A stretch of 64,000 bases of DNA from the NCBI GenBank assembly GCA_030693145.1, contig JAUYBI010000015.1, forward strand, positions 8,619 through 72,618. Reading direction: 5' to 3'. Both the position numbers and the translations under genes were made by a program. The notes beneath the pieces are model-generated. The model worked only from the letters and a program-made list of their open reading frames with translations. It was not told the DNA's origin and did no database searches. The stretch is from Candidatus Omnitrophota bacterium (GTDB taxonomy: Bacteria; Omnitrophota; Gorgyraeia; Gygaellales; Profunditerraquicolaceae). Shown here piece after piece: positions 2,491-58,372 of this stretch (within the stretch, counting starts at the first letter, position 1; the number at the start of each line of letters is the position of its first letter).

Positions 2491-3330
2491 ATGATTCCGA
2501 TTGGGAAGTTAAAGCAGAACCTGCTCTTTAATAAGAATCTCGGGGATTTAATTGAGGTTATGAAGATGGCGGCTACCTTGCAGTTTAATCAGTTCCGCGC
2601 GCATCAGGAGCCCGCGGAAAACTTTTATACTTTACTGAATTCCGCCTATAGCGCATTGCCGCTGGATGAGTCGACGCATAGTTTTTTTAATCCGCCGCCA
2701 AATCTGCCGGGTTTGACTGTTTTGATTAGTTCCGACGGAGGATTTTTAGGGGAACTCAATATTCTTTTAGTCAACCGACTCCTGGATACCAAGCGCCCGC
2801 AGGATGAAATTGTCGTTTTAGGCCAGCAGGGGATCAGTTATCTTAATGAAGCCAAAATTAGTTTTATTAGTTTTGAATCTCCGGGGGATAAGTTAGATAC
2901 CCAGAAAATTGGCCTGCTGAGGGATTATCTGGCGAAACGTTATTTTAAACAACAGATCAGCGGGGTAACTGTAATTTATTCTAAGTTTATTAATATTACT
3001 ACTCAGCAGGTAGAAGTGGAGAACCTTTTGCCTTTAGAGCACAAAGAAAATGTTGTGCGTAAAGGCAAGGAGGTTCTGGTTGAGCCGGATATTAAATCCG
3101 TCCTGGAGGGATGGATTAAATTATGGCTGGATTTTCGTTTTTATCATATTTTCTGGTCAAGTAAACTGGCAGAGCATGCTGCCCGGATTATGCATCTGGA
3201 AGGAAGCTCGCAGGAGTTGACTAAGATTAATCAGCATTTGCATATGGAGTATTTTAAATATTTGCACGGGCTTTCGGATAAGTCGATTCGTGAGCTTTCC
3301 GCGGCGCGCCTGATGAGAAGGAATAATTAG
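2491..3330 (+). CDS. atpG: F-type ATP synthase gamma subunit
   Basis: 279 aa. N-terminal LIEVMKMAATLQF matches the gamma ITKAMKMVAAAKL motif. It lies between atpA and atpD. Confidence 0.8.
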   Translation: MIPIGKLKQNLLFNKNLGDLIEVMKMAATLQFNQFRAHQEPAENFYTLLNSAYSALPLDESTHSFFNPPPNLPGLTVLISSDGGFLGELNILLVNRLLDTKRPQDEIVVLGQQGISYLNEAKISFISFESPGDKLDTQKIGLLRDYLAKRYFKQQISGVTVIYSKFINITTQQVEVENLLPLEHKENVVRKGKEVLVEPDIKSVLEGWIKLWLDFRFYHIFWSSKLAEHAARIMHLEGSSQELTKINQHLHMEYFKYLHGLSDKSIRELSAARLMRRNN

Positions 3331-3342
3331 GGATGTAAATAA

Positions 3343-4853
<1,511 letters not shown>

Positions 4854-6469
4854 GTTAAAAAGAATATGGTTACACAGCAACAGGTTAATGAGGCATTGAA
4901 AGAATCCGGGGATAATGGGGATATGTTGGGCAAGATTTTAGTCAACCGGGGGTTAATTAAAGAAATCGACCTTTTAAAAGTGCTTGCTGAACAGTTTAAC
5001 TTACCTTTCCATTTGCATTTAAAAGAAGTGCATATATCTACTGATGCAATTAAAGCCGTGCCGGCGAAATTCGTCCAGCATTACGGTTTTATGCCGATTA
5101 GCCTGGAGGGGTCGGTTTTAACGGTGGCGGTATATAATCCCATGGATATCTGGCTGGCGGAAAATATCAAATTGAACTTAGGGTTTGCCGTAAAAAAAGT
5201 TTTAGCCACGCGGCGCGAGGTGGAGATAGCCATACATAAATATTATGGCGCAGTGGCCGGGACAGTGGATAAGATTATGGAAGGCAAGGTGAGCGCGGGG
5301 ACGAAATTGATTAAGGATGAGAGCGTGGAAGATATTGAAAAAAACGCCGATGAAGCATCGGTAATTAAGCTCGTTAATCAGATCATCACCGAGGCGATTA
5401 AGATGCAGGCCACGGATATCCACATTGAGATTTATGTGGATAAAGTAGTTTTGCGTTACCGGATTGACGGAGTTTTGCGGGAAATGAAGATGCCCCAGGA
5501 TGCTTATTATATTGAGCCGGCGATTGTTTCGCGGATTAAAATTATGTGCCATTTAGATGTGGTGGAGCACCGCGTTCCGCAGGACGGCCGGGCTAAGGTC
5601 CGGCTCCTGGACGGCCAAGAAGTGGATTTAAGGGTTTCTATTCTGCAGGGTTATTTTGGAGAGAATGTCGTTATCCGGATTTTACCTTCCCATGTACTTT
5701 TAGATTTAGATAAAATCGGATTCCTGCCGCAAGATTTAGATACAATTAATAAGCTTATCCAAAAACCGAACGGGATTATTTTAATTACCGGCCCCACCGG
5801 AAGCGGCAAGACGACTACGCTTTATACCTGTTTGACCCGCCTGAACCGTAAAGAGGTAAAGATCATCAGTATTGAGGACCCGGTAGAATACGCGATCGAA
5901 GGCATCACCCAGATTCATGTCAATCCTAAAGTGGGGCTGACCTTTGCCAGCGCCTTAAGAAGCGTCTTAAGGCATGACCCGGATATTATGATGATTGGCG
6001 AGATTCGCGATTCGGAGACAGCCGACCTGGCCATCCGCTCATCGCTTACCGGGCATTTGGTTTTTTCTACTTTGCACACTAATGATTCTGCTACCGGTAT
6101 CGCCCGGCTGATGGACATGGGGATCCAGCCTTATTTATTAGCTTCTTCGGTAGAGGCAATTATCGCTCAGCGTTTAGTGCGTTTACTTTGCCTGCAATGC
6201 AGAGGCAAAGGATGTGAAGCTTGCAGTGAAACAGGATTTAAGGGCCGCCGGGCAATTTATGAGATTATGACAATTGATGATGATATACGGAATTTAATTA
6301 TTGAACATAAGAGCGCGCAGGAGATTAAAGCTAAGGCCCGCGAAAAAGGTATGCGCACGCTGATGGAAAACGGAATGCTTTTGGTGGAACAGGGATTAAC
6401 GAGCAAGGAAGAAATTTTACGCGTAGTGGAATTGGAGTGATATTCGTCATTGCGGGGAGCAAAGTAGAG

Positions 6470-6509
6470 TAGAGGAGGTTTAAACCTCCCCTACAGATGT
6501 GGATAACTC
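6470..6509. repeat. PalA copy (GTAGAGGAGG..CCTCCCCTAC) with the CAGATGTGGATAACT tail
   Basis: Palindrome with one arm mismatch. The tail contains TGTGGATAA. Confidence 0.8.
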
Positions 6510-6522
6510 GGGGAAAATAAAA

Positions 6523-7746
6523 ATGCAATTTAAATATAAAGCCAAAAAGAACTTAAATGAGATGGTCGAGGGCAATATCGAAGGAATCAGCGTCAAAGGA
6601 GTGCTCGAGGATCTTCAGGAGCAAGGCCTGGTGCCGATTTGTGTTGAGCCATTGGCGATACCCGCGGCTTCGGAAACGCTGAACTTAAAAAGCAAAGCGA
6701 AATTAAAAACCGGAAAATATGGCTTAAAACAGTTAGTTTTATTCACGCAAAAACTCTATAATTTAATTAATTCCCGGGTAGAGTTATTAAGCGCCTTAAG
6801 GCTGCTGGAAAAGAATTCTGATAATCAGACGGAGAAAACATTGCTCGCAGAGATTATCCGGAATATCAAAGACGGCGTCCCGTTTTCCGCGTGTTTGGCC
6901 CGTTATCCGCAATACTTTCCCCGGCTTTATATTAATATCGTGCACACCGGGGAGTCAACCGGAAAGCTTAAAGATGCCTTAATGCAGCTTTTAGAGCATT
7001 TACGCCGGCTCCAGGATTTAAAGTTAAAAGTTAAGCAAGCCCTGGCTTATCCGATATTTATGAGCCTGGTCGGCGTAGGCACAATTTTTGTGATGCTTAC
7101 TTTTGTCCTTCCGCGCCTAGCCGGAATGTTTGATGATTTCCAGGCCAAGCTTCCTTTACCGACACTAATCCTGCTGAAGATCTCTAATTTTTTACAAAGT
7201 TATTGGTGGGGGATAATTATTTTAATGGCGTTGGTTGTTTTTGCCTTAAAGCTAAAGCCCGCGGGCAAAGAAAGCATTTTTAACCGGTTAAAATATTATA
7301 TTCCGGTGGTTAAAGAGATTGTTTATAAACAGTCAGTGGCTAATTTTTCGCAGAGTTTATCTTTACTTTTAAAAAGCGGAGTAAATCTACTTTCCGCGTT
7401 AGCCGATGCCGGCCCGATAATCGGAAATCCGGTTTATATCTTACAATTAGAACAGGTACGCAAAGATATTGGGGAAGGGGTTCCTTTTTCCGCTGCCCTG
7501 GAAAAATTTAAAATCTTCTCGGATTTTTTTGTGCAGATGATTCGTGTCGGTGAAGAAGGGGGAAGGCTGGATAGCGTGCTTGCGGATATCGCCGAGTCTT
7601 ATGAGAAAGAGATAGAGGCAGATTTAAAAATCGTCAGTTCTCTTATCGAGCCGGCAATAATTTTAGTTCTGGGTTTAGTGATTGGGGCAATGGTGATTGC
7701 CATGCTTTTGCCGATATTTAATATGAATAGTATTGTTGGTGGTTGA
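6523..7746 (+). CDS. gspF: Type II secretion / T4P inner-membrane platform protein (GspF/PilC family)
   Basis: Two GspF repeat domains with TM segments. The upstream in-frame start of the ORF track (6499, GTG) lies inside the palindromic repeat. The ATG at 6523 gives MQFKYKAKK.., a typical GspF N-terminus. Confidence 0.8.
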   Translation: MQFKYKAKKNLNEMVEGNIEGISVKGVLEDLQEQGLVPICVEPLAIPAASETLNLKSKAKLKTGKYGLKQLVLFTQKLYNLINSRVELLSALRLLEKNSDNQTEKTLLAEIIRNIKDGVPFSACLARYPQYFPRLYINIVHTGESTGKLKDALMQLLEHLRRLQDLKLKVKQALAYPIFMSLVGVGTIFVMLTFVLPRLAGMFDDFQAKLPLPTLILLKISNFLQSYWWGIIILMALVVFALKLKPAGKESIFNRLKYYIPVVKEIVYKQSVANFSQSLSLLLKSGVNLLSALADAGPIIGNPVYILQLEQVRKDIGEGVPFSAALEKFKIFSDFFVQMIRVGEEGGRLDSVLADIAESYEKEIEADLKIVSSLIEPAIILVLGLVIGAMVIAMLLPIFNMNSIVGG

Positions 7747-9207: not shown

Positions 9208-9734
9208 GAAAATTAAATAACAAGGAAAAAATATTAGCAGCTGCGATCGGGGCCCTGTTGATTTTGCTGGCGCTTAAGGTTTTTGTTTTGGGCCCGATTT
9301 ATGATAAGACGGGTATTTATTCCAGCGAGATTGAACAGGCCAAAGTAACGATCCGCAAATATACGGCCTTAGAGCATAACCGCATGGAGATCCTCAAGGC
9401 CCAAAAACAGATTGAAGGGTATTCCAGCCTCAAGGGCTCGGATGAAGATAAGTCCGCGATGGTGATGAGCAAACTGGAAGCCGAGGCCAGAAGGTCTAAG
9501 CTGCAGATATTGGATATGAACTCCACCGGGGTGACTAAGGTTAAAGGCGGGGTAACTCTTTACCGGGTTAATTTAAGTGCTGAGGGCCAGTTAAAAGATT
9601 TTCTGGATTTTATTTCCGGGATTGAGGGGGCAAATATCCTGTTGCAGGTGGAGAAGATTACTTTAGCGGTTAAGGGTGAAAATACCGGATTATTAAAAAT
9701 TGATGTGGTGATTTTAGGAGTCGCTTTTGCTTAA
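9204..9734 (+). CDS. GspM/PilO-like bitopic inner-membrane protein
   Basis: 176 aa. N-terminal TM helix followed by a periplasmic domain. Its start overlaps the upstream stop (ATGA). Operon position after the GspL-like gene. Confidence 0.4.
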   Translation: MRKLNNKEKILAAAIGALLILLALKVFVLGPIYDKTGIYSSEIEQAKVTIRKYTALEHNRMEILKAQKQIEGYSSLKGSDEDKSAMVMSKLEAEARRSKLQILDMNSTGVTKVKGGVTLYRVNLSAEGQLKDFLDFISGIEGANILLQVEKITLAVKGENTGLLKIDVVILGVAFA

Positions 9735-9859
9735 TAAGCAGGGGAGGTTGAAACCTCCCCTACAGCTGTTAATAATCAACTATGGAGGATACTTTTGCTT
9801 AATGAGTAGGGGAGGTTTAAACCTCCCCTACAGCTGTTGATAATCAACTAGGGAGGATA
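9724..9859. repeat. 68-bp tandem duplication, each unit holding a PalA copy (GCAGGGGAGGTTGAAACC.. and GTAGGGGAGGTTTAAACC..) plus a CAGCTGTT(A/G)ATAATCAACTA tail
   Basis: The two units, 9724-9791 and 9792-9859, differ at about 5 positions. The first unit includes the gspM-like stop codon. Confidence 0.8.
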
Positions 9860-9861
9860 CA

Positions 9862-14219: not shown

Positions 14220-14259
14220 GTAGGGGAGGTTTAAACCTCCCCTACAGTTGTGGATAACT
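14220..14259. repeat. PalA G-variant with the CAGTTGTGGATAACT tail
   Basis: Perfect 26-bp palindrome at 14220-14245. The tail carries TGTGGATAA. Confidence 0.85.
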
Positions 14260-33777: not shown

Positions 33778-33809
33778 ACAGTAGGGGAGGTTTAAACCTC
33801 CCCTACTGT
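33778..33809. repeat. PalA G-variant, extended palindrome ACAGTAGGGGAGGTTTAAACCTCCCCTACTGT
   Basis: Read directly. Lies between the CoA-ligase gene and rlmN. Confidence 0.85.
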
Positions 33810-37490: not shown

Positions 37491-37523
37491 CAGTAGTAGG
37501 GGAGGTTTAAACCTCCCCTACTG
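37491..37523. repeat. PalA G-variant between nfo and leuS
   Basis: CAGTAGTAGGGGAGGTTTAAACCTCCCCTACTG. Confidence 0.85.
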
Positions 37524-39960: not shown

Positions 39961-40030
39961 TAGAATAAAGGGACCGTTTCTATTTTTTAAAAGAAAAAAT
40001 AGAAACGGTCCCTTTATTCTGAAACGGTCC
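39961..40030. terminator. Bidirectional intrinsic-terminator-like perfect hairpin between convergent leuS and the response-regulator gene
   Basis: ataaagggaccgtttctatttttt-aaaag-aaaaaatagaaacggtccctttat forms a 24-bp perfect stem flanked by T/A runs. It is a variant of the GGGACNGTTCT hairpin family. Confidence 0.5.
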
Positions 40031-40032
40031 CT

Positions 40033-40407
40033 TTATTCTATATTCCCCAGAACGTCTTTAATGTCAAAAAGTAATCTTTGGTAATCAATGGGTTTTTCGA
40101 GATAGACGGTGATTCCGCTTTTAGCGGCAATATGTTTATCAATTTCTTCGTGTTTTAGGGAGGTGGCGATAATCGGGGTATCCGCAAATTCAGGCAGGGC
40201 CTTGATATCCTGGGCAACTTTAAACCCGCTTTCATCCGGCAGGACCAGATCCAGGAGCACGCAATCCGGTTTTTCCGCTTTTAGTTTTTCTATACCCTCT
40301 TTAGCGCTGTAGGCAATAACTACGGTATAACCTGCCCTAAGCAATTCTTCCTTACTCTTTTTGGCGATATTATAATCATCGTCAATCACCAGGATTTTCT
40401 TGGGCAT
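40033..40407 (-). CDS. Single-domain response regulator (CheY-like receiver)
   Basis: 124 aa. ILVIDDD at the N-terminus, the phospho-acceptor Asp in VLLDLVLPD, and a conserved Lys in YLEKP. Confidence 0.8.
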   Translation of the reverse strand: MPKKILVIDDDYNIAKKSKEELLRAGYTVVIAYSAKEGIEKLKAEKPDCVLLDLVLPDESGFKVAQDIKALPEFADTPIIATSLKHEEIDKHIAAKSGITVYLEKPIDYQRLLFDIKDVLGNIE

Positions 40408-40472: not shown

Positions 40473-40555
40473 CAGTAGGGTGGGTTTAAACCCACCCTAC
40501 TGTTGTTAATAAACTCTACTTTCAACAGTAGGGGAGGTTTAAACCTCCCCTACTG
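40473..40555. repeat. Two PalA copies (T-variant 40475-40500, G-variant 40528-40553), each with CAGT/ACTG extensions
   Basis: Read directly. Lies in the divergent intergenic region between the response-regulator gene and comEA. Confidence 0.85.
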
Positions 40556-40995: not shown

Positions 40996-42404
40996 AAAGG
41001 CCGCTGGTAATCTTAGCCGTATTTTATGTCCTGGGAATTATTTTGGCGGGCTTAATCCGCCTGGATTTTTGGCTGGTTATGGGGGTGGCCATTGTAGTTT
41101 TTGCCTGCGTCAGCTTAGGGGTAAGAGAAAAACATTTATTTCTGGTTTCAGTATTATTTTTAGCGCTGCTTGCCGGAGGCCTGAACCTGAAAAATTCCCA
41201 TAGATTGCCCGGATGCCATATTCGTAATTTTGTTGCCCATAAAGATAACGCAGTTTATTGCCTGAATGGATTTATCGCTAGCCAGCCGGAATTCAAAAAT
41301 GATCATCTTTGGTTTATTTTACGGGCTCGCCAAATCCAAGCAGATAAACTAAGATATAAATGTTGCGGAGAGGTACTGGTTAAAATGGATTTTAAGCAAG
41401 CATTAAATTACGGGGAGAATTTAACGCTTATCGGTGGTTTAGGCCGGCCGCAAGTTTTCAGCCGCAGCCAGGGTTATCGGGATTTTCTGGCGCGTCAAGG
41501 TATTTATCTGATCATGCCGATTCAAAATCACCGTCAAATTATCCGGCAGGATAAATTCAGCGGCGGGCAATTAATCCGGGGTTGCCTTTGGCTGCGTTTT
41601 TATTTGGAACAAATTATTAGCCGGCACCTTCCGGCTTTGCCGGCGAGTATACTTTCGGCTATGGTTTTAGGCCAAAAGCAGGGTATTCCCTGGCTCGTCA
41701 GTAACTCTATGATTAAAGCCGGCACCGTGCATATTTTGGTAGTCAGCGGTTTTAACGTAGGTATCGTGGCTTTTGTAATTAACTTATTGCTTAAAATCCT
41801 GCGCCTTCCGCGTAAGGGGCGCATCATCCTGACAGCAATTTGCCTGCTTATTTATTGCTTAATTACCGGAGCAACTAACCCGGTTATTCGCGCTACGGTT
41901 ATGGGTTTAGTTTTTTTAGCGGCGTATCTTTTAAAAAGGGAAGCGGATATCTATAATTCTCTGGTGAGCGCGGCATTATTTATCCTGGTGATTAATCCCC
42001 GGCAGCTTTTCGATGTTGGTTTCCAGCTCTCTTTTATCAGTGTGCTGGCCATCGTATATTTCTATCCTAAGTTAAAAGCCCGGGTTCATTTGGAGTCCTG
42101 CAAAATAAAAATATTGAAATTTATCATTGAAGGCTGTTTAGTCTCGTTTTCTGCCTGGCTGGGTACGCTGGTAATTATTGCTTTGAATTTTCGCATTATT
42201 GCCCCGGTAACTGTTTTGGCTAATATTTTGATTGTTCCGTTGGCTACGCTTATTACTTTATGCGGGTTTATCCTGGTTTTATCCGGCCTGATTTATCCGG
42301 ATTTAGCCAATCTTTTTAGCCTGCCTACCATGGCGTTGATTACCCTGCTTTTAAATATAAATGCCTCCTTGATCAAGCTGCCTGGTGCTTATATTTATTT
42401 CTAA
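40992..42404 (+). CDS. comEC: ComEC/Rec2 DNA internalisation channel (short form without the metallo-beta-lactamase domain)
   Basis: 470 aa. DUF4131-like N-terminal region and the Competence domain (LSAMVLGQKQGIPWLVSNSMIKAGTVHILVVSGFNVGIV), with multiple TM helices. Start overlaps the comEA stop (ATGA). Confidence 0.75.
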   Translation: MKRPLVILAVFYVLGIILAGLIRLDFWLVMGVAIVVFACVSLGVREKHLFLVSVLFLALLAGGLNLKNSHRLPGCHIRNFVAHKDNAVYCLNGFIASQPEFKNDHLWFILRARQIQADKLRYKCCGEVLVKMDFKQALNYGENLTLIGGLGRPQVFSRSQGYRDFLARQGIYLIMPIQNHRQIIRQDKFSGGQLIRGCLWLRFYLEQIISRHLPALPASILSAMVLGQKQGIPWLVSNSMIKAGTVHILVVSGFNVGIVAFVINLLLKILRLPRKGRIILTAICLLIYCLITGATNPVIRATVMGLVFLAAYLLKREADIYNSLVSAALFILVINPRQLFDVGFQLSFISVLAIVYFYPKLKARVHLESCKIKILKFIIEGCLVSFSAWLGTLVIIALNFRIIAPVTVLANILIVPLATLITLCGFILVLSGLIYPDLANLFSLPTMALITLLLNINASLIKLPGAYIYF

Positions 42405-42417
42405 GAGCTCTAATATA

Positions 42418-42520
42418 GTAGGGGAGGTTTAAACCTCCCCTACTATTAAAGGCTCGCTTTAAACCTCCCCTACTATTAAAGGCTCGCTTTAAACCTCCCC
42501 TACTATTAAAGGCTCGCTTT
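42418..42520. repeat. PalA G-variant followed by a 3x tandem array of a 30-bp unit (TTTAAACCTCCCCTACTATTAAAGGCTCGC) made from the PalA right half plus flank
   Basis: The three units, 42428-42457, 42458-42487 and 42488-42517, are identical. Confidence 0.85.
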
Positions 42521-42524
42521 AGAA

Positions 42525-42573
42525 TATAGGGGACGGTTCTGTTTTTTAAATAAAAAAATAGAACCGTCCCCTA
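42525..42573. repeat. HpB hairpin (ATAGGGGACGGTTCTGTTTTTT-AAATA-AAAAAATAGAACCGTCCCCTAT), perfect palindrome
   Basis: Read directly. Terminator-like, lying after comEC. Confidence 0.8.
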
Positions 42574-42630
42574 TATTTGCTTGATTTTACCTTTGACAAA
42601 GCCGTCCGGCTATGGTAAATTCATAATATT

Positions 42631-43575
42631 ATGAAACGCATAATCTTAAGTTTGTTAATAATTTCTTTTTTCGCTATCCAACCGGCGCACGCTTACTGGA
42701 TTTGGACCCCTAAGAGCGGGAAATGGGTTAATCCCAAGAACCTGCCTAAGGATAATCCCAAGGAGCAGTTTGCATACGCCAAGTCTTATTTTGATAATAA
42801 TAAATACGAAGAGGCAAAGCGTGAATTCCGTAAACTGCTTAAGGCTTATCCTAAGTCAGCCGAGGCAGCGGAAAGCCAATATTATCTGGGCTTAGCCGAG
42901 GAACAGCAGAGTAAATTATATGAAGCATTTCAGGCTTATCAACTAGTTATCGATAAATACCCTTTTAGTGAGCGCATTCAGGAGATTATCGAGAAGGAAT
43001 ATAAAATTGCCGAGAAATTTATGGCCGGGGAAAAACGTAAAGCATTGGGTATAGATCTACCGGTGGAGAATCCGGCGATTGAGATATTCGGCAAGGTGGT
43101 TGAAAATTCTACCTACGGGCCCCTGGCCCCTAAAGCGCAGTATAAATTAGGCCTGGTTTTAAAAGGATTAATGCGTTATTACGAAGCAGAGGAGGAGTTT
43201 GGCAAGGTGGTTTCCCGTTACCCGGATAGTGAATGGTCAGCGGCAGCCAAATTCCAGATTGCTTCCTGCCGGGCAAGTCTATCCAAGGGTTTTGCTTATG
43301 ACCAGGGTTCAGCCCAGGAGGCTAAAGAGAAGTTCCAGGAGTTTGTCAAGGAGCATCCGGATGCCGTGCTTTCTTTGGATGCGGAAAAAAATATCGGCCA
43401 AATCCGGGAGAAAGAGGCAGAGGCAAGCTACAATACCGCACTTTTTTACGAAAAACAAAAAGCTTTTGATTCAGCCAAAATTTATTATAATAGTATAGTC
43501 AATGATTACGCGCAGAGCCCTTGGGCAGGGCAGGCCGCGGCCAGATTACAGCTAATGGAGGAGAAAAAGAAATGA
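42631..43575 (+). CDS. Secreted TPR-repeat protein (BamD/YfiO-like or YbgF-like)
   Basis: 314 aa. Signal peptide with no lipobox Cys, then several TPR-like repeats (AEAAESQYYLGLAEEQQ, AQYKLGLVLKG). Confidence 0.4.
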   Translation: MKRIILSLLIISFFAIQPAHAYWIWTPKSGKWVNPKNLPKDNPKEQFAYAKSYFDNNKYEEAKREFRKLLKAYPKSAEAAESQYYLGLAEEQQSKLYEAFQAYQLVIDKYPFSERIQEIIEKEYKIAEKFMAGEKRKALGIDLPVENPAIEIFGKVVENSTYGPLAPKAQYKLGLVLKGLMRYYEAEEEFGKVVSRYPDSEWSAAAKFQIASCRASLSKGFAYDQGSAQEAKEKFQEFVKEHPDAVLSLDAEKNIGQIREKEAEASYNTALFYEKQKAFDSAKIYYNSIVNDYAQSPWAGQAAARLQLMEEKKK

Positions 43576-44204
43576 TAGAAGTCAGAAGTCAGAAGTCAGA
43601 AGCCAGAAAACAGAAAACAGAAAATCTTCTTTTCCGTCTTCCGTCTTCCGTCTTCCGTCTTCTGTCTTTTATCCTCTGTCTTCTGTTTTTAACAACCGGC
43701 TGTGGTTATACTACCCGCTCCATGATTTCCGGGAAATACAAAACAATTTACATCGCTCCTTTCCTGAATAAAGTGGACATAACCCAGGAAACCTATTCGG
43801 CTAATAAATACCGTATTTACCGGCCGATGCTGGAAACGGATATTACCAAAAAGGTAATTAACCGGTATCTTTTTGACGGTAATCTCAAGCCCGTAAAAGA
43901 GGCGGCTGCGGATTTAGTGTTGAAGGGGGAGCTGCTGGAGTACCGTAAGGATCCTTTAAGTTATGATAAAAATAATGAAAATGTTACTGAATACCGTATT
44001 AATATTTATGTAAATTTAAGCCTTTGGGATACCCAGGAGAATAAGTTGGTTTGGCAGGAGAATAACTTTAACGGCAATTATTCTTATTTTACCGATGATA
44101 ATGTTAACAGCGCTAGTGTCAAAGTGCCTGAGGCTACTGCGGTGAATAATGCTGTCGAGGATTTGGCCCGCCGCATCGTTGAACGTACAGTTGAGCAATG
44201 GTAA
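43572..44204 (+). CDS. lptE: LptE-like LPS-assembly lipoprotein
   Basis: Lipobox LTTGCGYTTRS. Sits in the conserved leuS-lptE-holA arrangement. The start overlaps the upstream stop (ATGA). The 5' coding region contains tandem heptamer repeats. Confidence 0.55.
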   Translation: MIEVRSQKSEARKQKTENLLFRLPSSVFRLLSFILCLLFLTTGCGYTTRSMISGKYKTIYIAPFLNKVDITQETYSANKYRIYRPMLETDITKKVINRYLFDGNLKPVKEAAADLVLKGELLEYRKDPLSYDKNNENVTEYRINIYVNLSLWDTQENKLVWQENNFNGNYSYFTDDNVNSASVKVPEATAVNNAVEDLARRIVERTVEQW

Positions 44205-44205
44205 T

Positions 44206-44844
44206 ATGGTTTATCTACTTATCGGCCAGGATATCGCGGCCAAAGAAACTCAGCTTAAGAAAATAAAGCAGGAATCCCTTTCCCCAGAGCTGCAAGATTT
44301 TAATCTGGATACCTTATACGCCAAAGAAATAACCTTAAAAGATATCCAAGAGCGCCTTCTGGCCATTCCGCTAAAAAGCGCTAAAAGAGTGATGGTAATT
44401 AAAGACGCGGATTCTCTTAATGAAGAATCCCGCAATTTCCTCTTGAGCTATGCCAAAAAACCGCATAAACAATTAGTCCTGGTTTTAGATTTCGCACAAT
44501 ACGATTATAAGGATGAGTTTATCAAGGGTATCTGCGCGCATGCCAGCATCCTGCGTTTTAAGGAAATAGTTAACCCGGATACTTTTGCCCTGAATCGGCA
44601 GATTGAATTAAGAAAAACAGATTCTGCTTTGCGCCTATTGCAGCAACTGCTTAAAAACGGAGAGGCTCCGGAACGTATTCTGGGGGGCTTACGTTACGGC
44701 TGGGAGAAGCAGGATATTCAGAGCCCCGGTGCCCGAAGGAAGTTAAAACTTCTTTTGGGGGCTGACCTGGAAATGAAGACAGGCAGGCTAAAGCCTGCCT
44801 GTGCCTTGGAAAAATTAGTAGTAAGTTTATGCGGTTTTGCTTAA
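44206..44844 (+). CDS. holA: DNA polymerase III delta subunit (short)
   Basis: N-terminus MVYLLIGQDIAAKETQLKKI is HolA-like. Position immediately after lptE as in E. coli. The 212-aa length is short for HolA. Confidence 0.6.
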   Translation: MVYLLIGQDIAAKETQLKKIKQESLSPELQDFNLDTLYAKEITLKDIQERLLAIPLKSAKRVMVIKDADSLNEESRNFLLSYAKKPHKQLVLVLDFAQYDYKDEFIKGICAHASILRFKEIVNPDTFALNRQIELRKTDSALRLLQQLLKNGEAPERILGGLRYGWEKQDIQSPGARRKLKLLLGADLEMKTGRLKPACALEKLVVSLCGFA

Positions 44845-45090
44845 GCGGCGCATCAGGCGCGATTTTCTGCGGTTAGCGGTAGCCGGGTGAATAATATTTT
44901 TTTTGGCGGCTTTATCCAGCTGGGAAAAAACCTTAGAAATGAAGGCCTTAGCTTCAACAGTGTTTTCTTTAGTAAGTAATTCCTGAAACTTCTTAATTGT
45001 TTTCTTAAGTTGTCCCTTTACCTTAAGATTGCGGGTATGTTTTCTCTTGTTTACGCGGTTACTTTTTAATGATGTTCTGCGTCTGGGCAT
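44827..45090 (-). CDS. rpsT: 30S ribosomal protein S20
   Basis: 87 aa. Basic N-terminus MPRRRTSLKSNRVNKRKH and an all-helical sequence of S20 length and composition. Convergent with holA, overlapping it by 18 nt. Confidence 0.85.
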   Translation of the reverse strand: MPRRRTSLKSNRVNKRKHTRNLKVKGQLKKTIKKFQELLTKENTVEAKAFISKVFSQLDKAAKKNIIHPATANRRKSRLMRRLSKTA

Positions 45091-45150
45091 ATGTTCTCCT
45101 TAGTTAATTTTACAGTAACAATTTAGTTGTTGGGAACATTCGAGGAGTCC

Positions 45151-45176
45151 GTAGGGCAGGTTTAAACCTGCCCTAC
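45151..45176. repeat. PalA C-variant (GTAGGGCAGGTTTAAACCTGCCCTAC)
   Basis: Perfect palindrome. The same compensatory change (G to C) is present on both arms. Confidence 0.8.
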
Positions 45177-45219
45177 TACTACATTTTATGAAGTATATTA
45201 TTAGCATAATTAATTACCC

Positions 45220-46776
45220 ATGTCAATAAACAAATATATCCCGGATAGTCAAAATCAGGCGGTTGCCCGCTCGGCAACGATGATCAGCCTGGCTACCCTT
45301 GCTTCGCGCGTTCTCGGTTTTATCCGGGATGTAATTATTGCCCGCCTGTTCGGAGTTTATCTTTATGCCCAGGCTTTTGTTATTGCTTTTCGTATCCCTA
45401 ATCTTTTCCGCGATCTGGTAGGGGAAGGTGCTGCTAACGCGGCAATTATCCCGGTTTTAAGCGAATATAATCTTAAGCATTCTCGTCAAGAGTTTTGGGA
45501 GCTGGCCAATATTTTACTTAATCTTTTGGCGGTAATCTTAAGCGCGATAACTATATTGGGAATAATTTTTTCTCCTTTGATTGTGCGCCTGATCGCCCCG
45601 GGTTTTATCGGATCCGCGGATAAGCTGCAAGCGACGATTAATTTAAACCGGATTATCTTTCCCTATATCCTGCTGATCGGCCTGGCGGCTTATGCCACGG
45701 CGGTGCTTAATTCGCTGAAGAGTTTTGCTCTCTCCGCATTTGCGCCCTGTTTTTTAAATATTGCGATAATTGTTTGCGCCCTGCTTTTTGGAGAAGGCAC
45801 CATGGGGTTGGCCGCCGGGGTCTTGTTGGGAGGTATTTTACAGCTGGCAGTGCAGGTTCCCCTTTTATATAAAAAGGGATTGCGCCCGAAATTTATTTTG
45901 TGTTTCCGGCATCCTGGCATAGTACAAATCCAAAAATTAATGTTGCCGCGGCTGGCTAGCTCCAGTATTTACCAGTTAAATAATTTTGTGGATTCAATTT
46001 TTGGTTCATTAGCCGCCATTGTGGGAGAGGGGGGAGTCGCGGTGCTGTATTTTTCCTATCGGCTTATACAATTTCCCATCGGTATTTTTAGTAATGCTAT
46101 TGCGCAGGCAATTTTACCTACTTTCTCTACCCAGGTATTAGAGGAAAATCAGGAAAATCTTAAAAATACGCTTTCCTGGGGGTTACGCCTAGTTTTTTTT
46201 GTGATGTTGCCAACAACCGCGCTGTTTATGGTTTTAGCTGACCCGTTAGTTTTTGGCCTTTTTGGCGGAGGCAAATTTGATTTTAACTCCGCGCGCTTAA
46301 CGAGCAATGCCCTATTTTTCTATAGCATTGGCTTAACTGCTTACGGAGGCACCAAGATATTACAATCCTGTTTTTTCGCCCTTAAAGATACGGTTACCCC
46401 TACCAAAATAGCCGGTTTAGCCTTGTTGATGAATATTATTCTAAATGCGCTATTAATGTTTCCGCTTAAAATGGGAGGCTTGGCTTTGGCTACCTCAATT
46501 TCAGGGGTAATTTCTTTTTTATTTTTATTTTTTATCCTCCGCCGCCGCCTGGGTGGTTTTGGAGAACATAAAATATTAAAGTCATTCTCGCGTATTCTGG
46601 CTGCCGCTTTGTGCATGGCCGCGGTATGTTTTTTGGTGAATCGAGCGTTAAATTTTGGCTGGGCATTATTTTGTGCCGCATTAGCCTATATCTTTTTTTG
46701 TGTTCTTTTTAAGGTAGCAGAACTAAAAGAGCTCATGAATTGGTTTTTCCATAAAAATTTAAGGCAATCTTTATGA
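45220..46776 (+). CDS. murJ: Lipid II flippase MurJ (MviN)
   Basis: 518 aa. ISLATLASRVLGFIRDVIIARLFG and AFRIPNLFRDLVGEG are MurJ signatures. About 14 TM helices. Confidence 0.85.
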   Translation: MSINKYIPDSQNQAVARSATMISLATLASRVLGFIRDVIIARLFGVYLYAQAFVIAFRIPNLFRDLVGEGAANAAIIPVLSEYNLKHSRQEFWELANILLNLLAVILSAITILGIIFSPLIVRLIAPGFIGSADKLQATINLNRIIFPYILLIGLAAYATAVLNSLKSFALSAFAPCFLNIAIIVCALLFGEGTMGLAAGVLLGGILQLAVQVPLLYKKGLRPKFILCFRHPGIVQIQKLMLPRLASSSIYQLNNFVDSIFGSLAAIVGEGGVAVLYFSYRLIQFPIGIFSNAIAQAILPTFSTQVLEENQENLKNTLSWGLRLVFFVMLPTTALFMVLADPLVFGLFGGGKFDFNSARLTSNALFFYSIGLTAYGGTKILQSCFFALKDTVTPTKIAGLALLMNIILNALLMFPLKMGGLALATSISGVISFLFLFFILRRRLGGFGEHKILKSFSRILAAALCMAAVCFLVNRALNFGWALFCAALAYIFFCVLFKVAELKELMNWFFHKNLRQSL

Positions 46777-46786
46777 GTTATTAACA

Positions 46787-46818
46787 ACAGTAGGGGAGGT
46801 TTAAACCTCCCCTACTGT
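46787..46818. repeat. PalA G-variant between murJ and uvrC
   Basis: ACAGTAGGGGAGGTTTAAACCTCCCCTACTGT. Confidence 0.85.
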
Positions 46819-58210: not shown

Positions 58211-58269
58211 AAAGATATTCTATAATAATTTCCGGGCCTTGTAAATGACATTGTAATAAACATGACATT

Positions 58270-58372
58270 GTAATAAACTCCGCTGATTTTTATCAATTGC
58301 CAAGTACAGTAGGGTGGGTTTAAACCCACCCTACTGTACTTGGCAAAAGTCCACAGGGTTTATTATAATGTT
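58270..58372. repeat. Extended PalA T-variant (50-bp perfect palindrome TTGCCAAGTACAGTAGGG..CCCTACTGTACTTGGCAA) with ATAAACTC(C/T)GC(T/G)GATTTTTAT and AAAAGTCCACAGGGTTTATTATAAT flanks
   Basis: The flanks are shared with the copies at 60331 and 61553. The right flank contains TTGGCA-N17-TTATAAT. Confidence 0.8.

Follow-up and report, generated by a model that had tools for sequence, protein, structure and literature searches.

The lptE gene of a Candidatus Omnitrophota bacterium, located in the 64,000-nt stretch of DNA analysed here (the window, to whose positions all coordinates refer), opens with two tandem arrays of heptanucleotides, one purine-rich and one pyrimidine-rich, which are mutual reverse complements and are both translated. 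The feature is probably a slippage-built, over-long lipoprotein signal peptide of 44 residues, and represents one allele of lptE. This reading is carried by the anatomy of the arrays, their reading frame, the distribution of alleles among relatives, a natural frameshift allele and purifying selection on the mature protein, each of which was observed directly.

Anatomy and reading frame of the lptE leader

The 5′ end of lptE and its immediate surroundings comprise the following features.

43572 to 44204, plus strand: lptE open reading frame (ORF) of 210 amino acids plus stop (Pfam LptE PF04390, 1.9e-14; 54.8 bits against a cut-off of 23)
43557 to 43563, plus strand: Shine–Dalgarno (SD) sequence GGAGGAG, 8 nt upstream of ATG 43572 and kept in all leader-bearing relatives
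43572 to 43703, plus strand: putative extended lipoprotein signal peptide, codons 1–44 up to the lipobox Cys (TGT 43701–43703), which aligns with the Cys of GCGY in 107 canonical orthologues; it begins at the sole in-frame start
43576 to 43624, plus strand: purine-rich heptamer array of 7 units (TAGAAGT, CAGAAGT ×2, CAGAAGC, CAGAAAA ×3), encoding the hydrophilic part EVRSQKSEARKQKTE
43625 to 43629, plus strand: TCTTC, the 5-nt spacer or hairpin loop that separates the arms
43630 to 43685, plus strand: pyrimidine-rich heptamer array of 8 units (TTTTCCG, TCTTCCG ×3, TCTTCTG, TCTTTTA, TCCTCTG, TCTTCTG), encoding LFRLPSSVFRLLSFILCLL
43659 to 43703, plus strand: hydrophobic core LLSFILCLLFL (residues 30–40; hydropathy peak 3.15), then the lipobox-like LTTGC; LLFLT[TA]GC is invariant in all leader alleles
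43564 to 43690, no strand assigned: whole imperfect palindrome, with two 61-nt arms (43564–43624 and 43630–43690) that are 72% complementary
42631 to 43575, plus strand: upstream BamD/YfiO-like gene with tetratricopeptide repeats (TPR), taken from the ORF list (Pfam YfiO, 1.5e-17, and TPR families)

From 43572 to 43703 the order is therefore ATG A, seven purine heptamers (pattern CAGAARN), TCTTC, eight pyrimidine heptamers (TCTTCYG-like), TTTTTAACAACCGGC and TGT. Period-7 arrays were reported by Tandem Repeats Finder at 43577–43608 (AGAAGTC, 4.6 copies), 43604–43624 (CAGAAAA, 3 copies) and 43632–43668 (TTCCGTC, 5.3 copies, 96% matches), and the longest perfect runs extend over three to four units (CAGAAGT ×3, CAGAAAA ×3 and TCTTCCG ×3–4). 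The arrays are real and statistically non-random. The three-unit purine pattern CAGAARNCAGAARNCAGAA has six overlapping matches in the window, all at the lptE site, with 0.04 expected from shuffles, and the heptamer pattern was found neither in the window outside lptE nor in 77 related canonical lptE loci. Two tandem heptamer arrays within the 5′ coding region had been described in an earlier, sequence-only reading of this DNA, and both Tandem Repeats Finder and the sequence itself bear this out. That description ended the second array too early, as degenerate pyrimidine units (TCTTCTG, TCTTTTA, TCCTCTG and TCTTCTG) run on to 43685 and bring the total to 7 + 8 units; it placed 8 nt between the arrays, where the distance is 11 nt for the arrays as it registered them and 7 nt by the Tandem Repeats Finder coordinates; and it did not include their inverted-complement relation.

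The translation proposed in the same reading (MIEVRSQKSEARKQKTENLLFRLPSSVFRLLSF..LTTGC) is correct, as is its assignment of the gene to lptE, given the Pfam match. The product has 1390 homologues, which are named LptE in Candidatus Omnitrophota, and the exact protein is MDP3041438.1. The stop codon TGA of the bamD-like gene (43573–43575) overlaps the lptE start as ATGA, and the ATG, the SD sequence and the overlap are kept in all eight leader-bearing DNA sequences. Between ATG 43572 and the Cys codon, neither the window nor six of seven relatives have an in-frame ATG, GTG or TTG, the exception being locus L085, with one in-frame TTG at codon 23. The frame from ATG to Cys is intact in 11 of 12 distinct leader alleles, across architectures of 132, 123, 123 and 168 nt.

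The encoded leader has the layout of a signal peptide, with four Lys and four Arg, plus four Glu, in residues 2–29 forming a charged n-region ahead of the hydrophobic h-region, and its lipobox L-T-T-G-C44 aligns with the LTGC or LSGC of the 107 canonical orthologues. In all three frames the purine array encodes only Lys, Arg, Glu, Gln, Ser, Thr, Asn, Val, Ala and Pro (mean hydropathy −2.3 to −2.6), one of these frames opening with a stop from TAG, and the pyrimidine array encodes Leu, Phe, Ser, Pro, Val, Arg and Cys (mean hydropathy +0.8 to +1.8). As seven is not divisible by three, successive units of an array fall in different frames and all three frames are used; because every purine frame is hydrophilic and every pyrimidine frame hydrophobic, the arrays specify an n-region and then an h-region by composition alone. 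A lipoprotein signal peptide is cut off during processing, and only its frame and hydrophobicity matter. Repeat expansion would thus be tolerated if the total length stays in frame, the character of the arrays being independent of frame and the signal being removed after export. Judged by its sequence, the LptE leader is predicted to be exported and cleaved. In the leader-bearing lineages, synonymous and non-synonymous codon changes in mature lptE number 32 and 12, 31 and 14, and 15 and 5, respectively, indicating purifying selection; the leader alleles have therefore long supported a functional LptE.

In the proposed mechanism, translation would run from ATG 43572 through both arrays, coupled to the bamD-like stop by the ATGA overlap. 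The purine array, (CAGAARN)7, would supply a long charged n-region, and the eight TCTTCYG-like units a Leu/Phe/Ser-rich stretch, the final part of which, LLSFILCLLFL, would serve as the h-region before the lipobox Cys. A 44-residue signal, made of two heptanucleotide microsatellites arranged as an imperfect palindrome, would in this way have replaced an ordinary one of 24 residues. Its origin may lie in slipped-strand duplication of TTCTGTC, a native heptamer of the h-region, and in an inverted copy made through template switching at a quasi-palindrome, with later gains and losses of units giving rise to four architectures. Native sequence is suggested as the source of the pyrimidine unit by the homology between the 3′ end of its arm (CTTCTGTCTTTTATCCTCTGT) and the canonical h-region of locus L207 (ATTCTGTCTTTTAACCACTGT), which share the pattern TTCTGTCTTTTA.CC.CTGT. 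Perfect heptamer duplications are present in the canonical signal-peptide coding regions of 7 of 69 unique sequences, a 17-fold enrichment over the 0.42 expected, and the h-region of a more distant LptE (L180, ~990–1030) is encoded by (TTTTCTG)×4.

Alleles of the leader and their lability

An ordinary 24-residue lipoprotein signal, for example MKKRINLFLSLATACLLLTTVLTGC, is found in 107 of 133 close homologues; 13 proteins carry the MxE[VA]R[KS]QK... leader, and 6 of the homologues carry a different insert, LENNGLPSDRQSHK. Leader DNA is represented by eight distinct alleles (the window, L082, L002/L003, L005, L083, L084, L085 and L206), and the inclusion of alleles available as protein only brings the number of distinct alleles to 12. 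The eight DNA sequences share a common build, consisting of the SD sequence, ATGA, 5–9 purine heptamers whose CAGAA core hardly varies, a brief spacer rich in A/T, 4–10 pyrimidine heptamers and a conserved 3′ end, TCTTCTGTTTTTAAC..GG.TG[CT], encoding LLFLTxGC. Their architectures are as follows.

Architecture A, 7 + 8 units, 132 nt: the window and L082
Architecture B, 123 nt: L083 and L085, and by protein length P0010, P0016 and P0019
L206, 109 nt: architecture B type with 5 rather than 7 purine units
Architecture C, 9 + 4 units, 123 nt: L005, L084 and P0132
Architecture D, 168 nt: L002/L003

Orthologues are either leaderless or carry the leader with repeats; the same leader without repeats, which the sequence-only reading had named as evidence against its proposal, was not seen among them. 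A profile search with the eight-leader alignment returned no new leader alleles, only LptE fragments and spurious ORFs running through the heptamer arrays of other organisms, and a look-up of ten canonical clusters revealed no hidden leader-bearing members.

Leader genes are interspersed among canonical ones, both by mature-protein identity and by flanking DNA (pairwise flank identities from BLAST). The canonical locus L207 is 93–100% identical to the window across 38.5–46.5 kb, including ~1.3 kb at 99–100%, with sharp local differences at the 5′ end of lptE and in some intergenic repeat regions. Architecture is independent of the flanks, since A occurs in the window and in L082, with flanks ~80% identical, and B in L083 and L206, which are 93–96% identical to the window over the nearest 300 nt, as well as in L085 (~80%). 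Either allele exchange by homologous recombination or an old polymorphism may lie behind this distribution.

Other Omnitrophota lineages have, at the same spot of lptE (after codon 4, MKNK), a clean 42-nt in-frame insertion, TTAGAGAACTATGGTTTGCACTCCGACAGGCAAAGCCATAAA (LENYGLHSDRQSHK), which is itself a hairpin. It is carried by L033 (~2955–3000), L047 (~3020–3065), L059 (~160–205) and L048, and by the proteins P0052, P0070, P0108, P0111, P0112 and P0133, being duplicated in P0108 and P0133 and nested in P0112; the nearest relative, L058, is without it. Within the fetched loci the 42-nt insert was not found outside lptE.

The sequence-only reading had suggested that the arrays could be a phase-variation switch. 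In a true contingency locus, gain and loss of heptamers by slipped-strand mispairing, possibly aided by the hairpin as in hmw1A, would reversibly toggle LptE ON and OFF and produce heterogeneity of the outer membrane and its lipopolysaccharide, which we consider unlikely here. The placement is suitable for a switch, with 7-nt units lying between the sole start codon and Cys44 of the lipobox, so that gain or loss of one unit shifts the frame, as had been stated, because the unit length is not a multiple of three. One natural allele is out of frame: L206 (GCA_030691405.1), whose mature protein is 99% identical to that of the window, has a leader of the L083 type minus one CAGAAGTCAGAAAA double unit (−14 nt). 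Its ATG frame ends at TAA (after MIEVRKQKSENRKS), and its LptE frame, which continues the bamD frame past TGA TAG, has no canonical start, resulting in an OFF allele. By its sequence, L206 would be exactly what slippage should produce. The flanks of the window and L206 are 95–96% identical, yet their arrays have been remodelled (leaders 80% identical, with 23 gapped positions); four repeat architectures exist among the relatives; and a heptamer simple sequence repeat (SSR) together with a hairpin drives phase variation of hmw1A in Haemophilus influenzae (PMC12721329).

A long uninterrupted tract would be expected for hypermutable slippage; the perfect runs here comprise three to four units, compared with at least 11 in natural hmw tracts (PMC12721329). 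Unit number is constant in three same-architecture pairs despite third-codon differences of 36%, 35% and 12% in mature lptE, and contigs that carry the same allele (L002/L003 and window/L001), from different samples or assemblies, are identical. Eleven ON alleles stand against one OFF allele, which could itself be a deleterious variant or an assembly error. LptE, moreover, is essential in model Gram-negatives and is not surface-exposed. What holds of the proposed switch is that unit number changes in nature, as the four architectures and the −14 nt of L206 attest; the short tracts, the constant counts, the identical contigs and the 11 of 12 alleles in frame speak against the switch itself. The lptE leader is probably evolutionarily labile, mostly stable and selected in frame, with an apparently low rate of switching, and a dedicated high-frequency switch is not indicated.

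Two further proteins, P0107 (L210) and P0038 (L211), considered as OFF alleles, proved to be canonical in-frame genes with mis-called starts, leaving L206 as the sole true frameshift. Speculatively, a +1 slip (AAA to AAA) on the run GAAAAAG just before the TAA of L206 (~975–985) could bring translation back into the LptE frame, although five A's are few for efficient slippage.

Nucleic-acid structure and other readings of the palindrome

Several observations weigh against reading the feature as a slippage-built signal peptide. The lipobox is relaxed, with Thr rather than Leu at position −3, and its Cys, at residue 44 in the window and at 41–56 in the other leader alleles, lies past the usual limit of ~35 residues for lipoprotein signals. 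Substitutions in the leader show no codon periodicity, and the third positions of the purine arm differ at 2/18, 0/18 and 1/18, compared with ~35% in the mature gene (two pairs). The frameshifted L206 is equally expected of a phase-variable locus, and the patchy distribution of leader and canonical genes among near-identical genomes would need recombination or an old polymorphism. A strand asymmetry of pairing is left unexplained by the signal-peptide model alone: over eight alleles, 51 non-Watson–Crick positions are A/C on the mRNA strand and hence G·U on the antisense strand, and only 3 are of the reverse kind, G/T on the plus strand. The nucleotide conservation of the leader hints at an added constraint at the level of nucleic acid or at recent allele exchange. 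The asymmetry and conservation may stem from selection that keeps the 5′ coding region A-rich and unstructured, from selection that interrupts a hydrophobic run of excessive length (T to C changes give Pro, Ser or Arg), from recent allele exchange or from some function of the nucleic acid itself.

Such a function could be that of a regulatory hairpin in the bamD–lptE transcript, occluding the SD sequence and start codon and opened by ribosomes on the upstream gene, by RNase III processing, or by temperature or Csp, although we regard this as improbable. The plus-strand RNA of the window folds across 43540–43720 with −52 kcal/mol (z −4.2), the SD sequence being paired with UCCUCU at 43672–43677. 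The conserved ATGA overlap, the nucleotide-level conservation without codon periodicity and the presence of an unrelated hairpin-forming 42-nt insertion at the same place in other lineages also favour such an element, for which the 5′-UTR (untranslated region) hairpin of hmw is a precedent (PMC12721329). The mRNA-strand structure is, however, not conserved. Leader-only folds of seven alleles gave z-scores of −2.8, +0.9, −2.7, −1.6, −2.9, −2.4 and 0.0 on this strand (+0.9 for L082 and 0.0 for L085), and in the minimum-free-energy structures of most relatives the SD sequence is unpaired. Arm lengths do not co-vary, with 9 versus 4 units in architecture C (L005/L084), and the mismatches are systematically of the A·C type, which weakens a hairpin in the mRNA.

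The antisense strand folds better in each of the seven alleles (z −5.1, −5.6, −6.6, −2.8, −5.5, −6.2 and −2.4), with leader-only values for the window of −56.4 kcal/mol (z −5.1) on the minus strand and −41.6 kcal/mol (z −2.8) on the plus strand. An antisense-strand element, whether a minus-strand RNA hairpin, a terminator of antisense transcription or a DNA structure, with the coding strand merely tolerant of it, would accommodate these folds and the 51 positions that are G·U on the minus strand, as well as the U-rich run (AUCAUUUCUUUUUCU) that follows the hairpin on that strand; we nevertheless consider it very improbable. No gene on the minus strand needs a terminator here; read-through from rpsT, considered as such a need, was ruled out by the terminator of rpsT itself at 44802–44779. 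The sole promoter-like site (44122–44095) lies in a variable coding stretch, and such matches are common in this AT-rich DNA (16 found versus 6.5 expected). Selection that disfavours structure in the mRNA, or favours a peptide of lower hydrophobicity, could equally produce the asymmetry, which relative to the gene is reversed in L087, another Omnitrophota locus described below. An intrinsic terminator scan of 42300–45400 on both strands did not report the palindrome site, and a comparison with Rfam 15 gave nothing at or above gathering score; the matches below it were to models of eukaryotic miRNA precursors, generic long hairpins, and scored higher on the minus strand.

There is likewise very little chance that the palindrome is a mobile element, resembling miniature inverted-repeat transposable elements or repetitive extragenic palindromes (REPs), which inserted at the lptE start and spreads between genomes. 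Its patchy occurrence among near-identical genomes, the failure of leader architecture to track the flanks, similar paired arrays in many phyla and a dispersed palindrome of other sequence in the same genome would all suit such an element. Against it, no second copy exists in the window or the 77 related loci, and no target duplication is visible. The insertion is not clean, as ~50 nt are replaced relative to the canonical L207 and the 3′ part shows homology to the native h-region, and unit sequences differ between phyla, as independent slippage predicts.

A location of the repeats in the 5′ UTR, with LptE starting downstream, had been raised in the sequence-only reading and would account for a leader unusually long for a lipoprotein signal, but it can be set aside almost entirely, because ATG 43572, with its strong, conserved SD sequence and ATGA overlap, is the only in-frame start before the lipobox Cys, the in-frame alternatives from 43575 to Cys44 being rare CTG and ATC codons, and because the frame is kept in all leader alleles but one.

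Related systems and wider occurrence of array-coded export signals

Envelope genes with an SSR in their leader or signal-peptide coding region are already known, and the lptE array pair is a variant on this theme. The opa genes of Neisseria contain CTCTT pentamers in the signal-peptide coding region and encode phase-variable outer-membrane proteins. The oipA gene of Helicobacter pylori, also for a phase-variable outer-membrane protein, contains CT dinucleotides in the corresponding region (PMC10564699). The lptE leader shares with opa and oipA a pyrimidine-rich SSR in the signal-peptide coding region, a hydrophobic product rich in Leu, Ser and Phe, and a unit that is not a multiple of three. 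Those genes have long perfect tracts and documented ON/OFF switching, and encode non-essential, surface-exposed adhesins of host-adapted pathogens, whereas the lptE leader, known here from consensus sequences, belongs to environmental Omnitrophota and has short imperfect tracts and an extra inverted purine array.

By analogy, the closest mechanistic precedent is the (ATCTTTC)n heptanucleotide SSR with its 5′-UTR hairpin in hmw1A and hmw2A of H. influenzae (PMC12721329, PMC8262952). In both cases a gene for an envelope protein has, at its start or just upstream, a 7-nt SSR that makes up one arm of a long imperfect hairpin and whose unit number is altered by slippage. The hmw repeat is untranslated and at least 11 units long; it pairs with a G-rich arm that is not repetitive, and RNase III mediates its graded effect on expression. 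In lptE, by contrast, each arm is a translated heptamer array with short tracts, and relatives do not share a conserved hairpin on the mRNA strand. Two further papers (PMC4692102, PMC4679880), both citing Mrazek 2007, describe heptamers as the most abundant class of long SSRs in prokaryotes, with examples in cyanobacteria (short tandemly repeated repetitive sequences, STRR), Xanthomonas (GGGAATC) and Beggiatoaceae (TAACTGA), and note inverted array pairs able to form stem-loops in Xanthomonas. Array length varies between close relatives in these systems as it does in lptE, but those repeats are described as intergenic, with regulatory or undefined roles, whereas the lptE pair lies inside an ORF and would be translated as an export signal. 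PARCELs resemble the leader in being translated, dyad-symmetric repeat DNA tied to membrane-targeted proteins, with a punctate phylogenetic distribution. They are 25-residue (75-nt) repeat domains of mature proteins, recognised by a protein hidden Markov model; the lptE units are of 7 nt, are confined to a predicted cleaved signal peptide and show no conservation of protein motif beyond composition. Within the searchable literature, no description was found of paired heptamer arrays translated as a signal peptide or of repeats in Omnitrophota lptE.

To our knowledge, nearly all known SSRs that encode signal peptides switch surface antigens of host-adapted pathogens ON and OFF. In the present case the SSR is a heptamer microsatellite from an environmental, uncultured phylum, and its two translated mirror-image arrays lie within a lipopolysaccharide-assembly gene that is essential. 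The case would illustrate that a signal peptide can survive being rebuilt by replication slippage, since whether a segment is hydrophilic or hydrophobic depends in every frame on base composition alone. With one out-of-frame allele in existence, it also offers a concrete candidate, outside pathogens, for a frame switch driven by repeats.

When one genome per GTDB species was scanned for (CAGAARN)×3 + CAGAA, such arrays turned up in at least 120 places (loci L086–L205), in Acidobacteriota, Bacteroidota, Planctomycetota, Cyanobacteria, Nitrospirota, Desulfobacterota, Omnitrophota and others. Among the matches listed, a pyrimidine array lies within 200 nt 3′ of the purine array in 32 of 120 (27%; control rate 3.7%) and 5′ of it in only 1. 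Many of the listed sites are intergenic, as in L147 (Omnitrophota), between a stop codon and an ilvB-like start, and several of the listed arrays encode the N-terminal signal region of exported proteins:

L178, 3310–3420: ApbE lipoprotein, array in the n-region, MNNKSEVRSQKSEVKK...NSC
L124, 3070–3140 (Thermoanaerobaculia, DATLWH010000563.1): BatD, both arms, MTKPETRNQKPEGSAQRPFLVSGFWFLVLLLALPLSA
L108: Lcl_C protein, array in the h-region
L087, 1077–1190 (Candidatus Omnitrophota, JACRLT010000046.1), minus-strand gene: GH-like protein, both arms, start MSKTGDRGQGTGDRKRKFQKNIFSVFCLLFSVFCFLGMGK

The L087 leader consists of (ACAGGGG)n, a spacer and (TTCTGTY)n, the same purine/pyrimidine build as in lptE, and its G+U-rich, better-folding strand is the mRNA strand. 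Tentatively, and with less confidence than the signal-peptide reading of lptE itself, we suggest that paired inverted heptamer microsatellites, purine 5′ and pyrimidine 3′, are a recurrent and strand-symmetric bacterial route to build or remodel export signals. Such pairs would encode a charged and then a hydrophobic segment in every frame and on either strand; arising by slippage or template switching before an ORF, they could supply an n-region and an h-region, and in Omnitrophota one pair may have replaced the native LptE signal, circulating as an allele among near-identical genomes with occasional OFF variants. If the wider pattern (ApbE, BatD and other exported proteins in several phyla) is true, new export signals, or changed ones, would have a simple and general way to arise.

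Two side observations concern the scanned loci. The purine-5′/pyrimidine-3′ polarity (32 versus 1 among the matches listed) may reflect derivation from bidirectional terminators with an A-tract, stem and U-tract. In L117 (4327–4352; Aggregatibacter actinomycetemcomitans HK_961), an ATG is directly followed by (CAGAAGC)×4 at the start of a 1109-codon open frame, an array that looks like a classical 5′-coding heptamer SSR of a Pasteurellaceae pathogen.

Downstream of lptE lies a holA-like gene (matching DNA_pol3_delta), an order that is repeated in relatives; the neighbourhood also includes murJ and a minus-strand rpsT, as judged from the Pfam families of genes called on L001, a Logan contig of SRR13727537 that matches the window exactly here. 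In the window, holA (ending at 44844) and rpsT (44827–45090, minus strand) are convergent and overlap by 18 nt. The near-identical canonical genome of L207 has an extra 86-amino-acid GIY-YIG ORF between these genes (6301–6561), which is without counterpart near ~44844 of the window.

The dispersed palindrome TAGGGGAGGTTnnAACCTCCCCTA represents a REP-like or terminator-like repeat family of the source genome, with no sequence relationship to the heptamer arrays. Its half-site occurs 32 times in the window, with 1.3 expected, and forms ~12–14 hairpins, largely intergenic, at 2375–2398, 4780–4803, 6470–6493, 9739–9762, 9807–9830, 14221–14244, 33782–33805, 37497–37520, 40529–40552, 42419–42442, 45152–45175 and 46791–46814. 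The comEC–bamD intergenic region contains a perfect 30-nt tandem repeat of 3.1 copies at 42428–42521 (TTTAAACCTCCCCTACTATTAAAGGCTCGC, which holds the dispersed half-site), and then a 20-bp terminator-like hairpin at 42527–42573; this stretch is among the few places that are strongly different in L207 (43% identity bin). Other tandem repeats of the window are the following.

30 to 115: 45 nt, 1.9 copies
9724 to 9860: 68 nt, 2 copies, with a GGGGAGGTTGAAACCTCCCC hairpin
40002 to 40039: 19 nt, 2 perfect copies
58245 to 58278: 17 nt, 2 perfect copies

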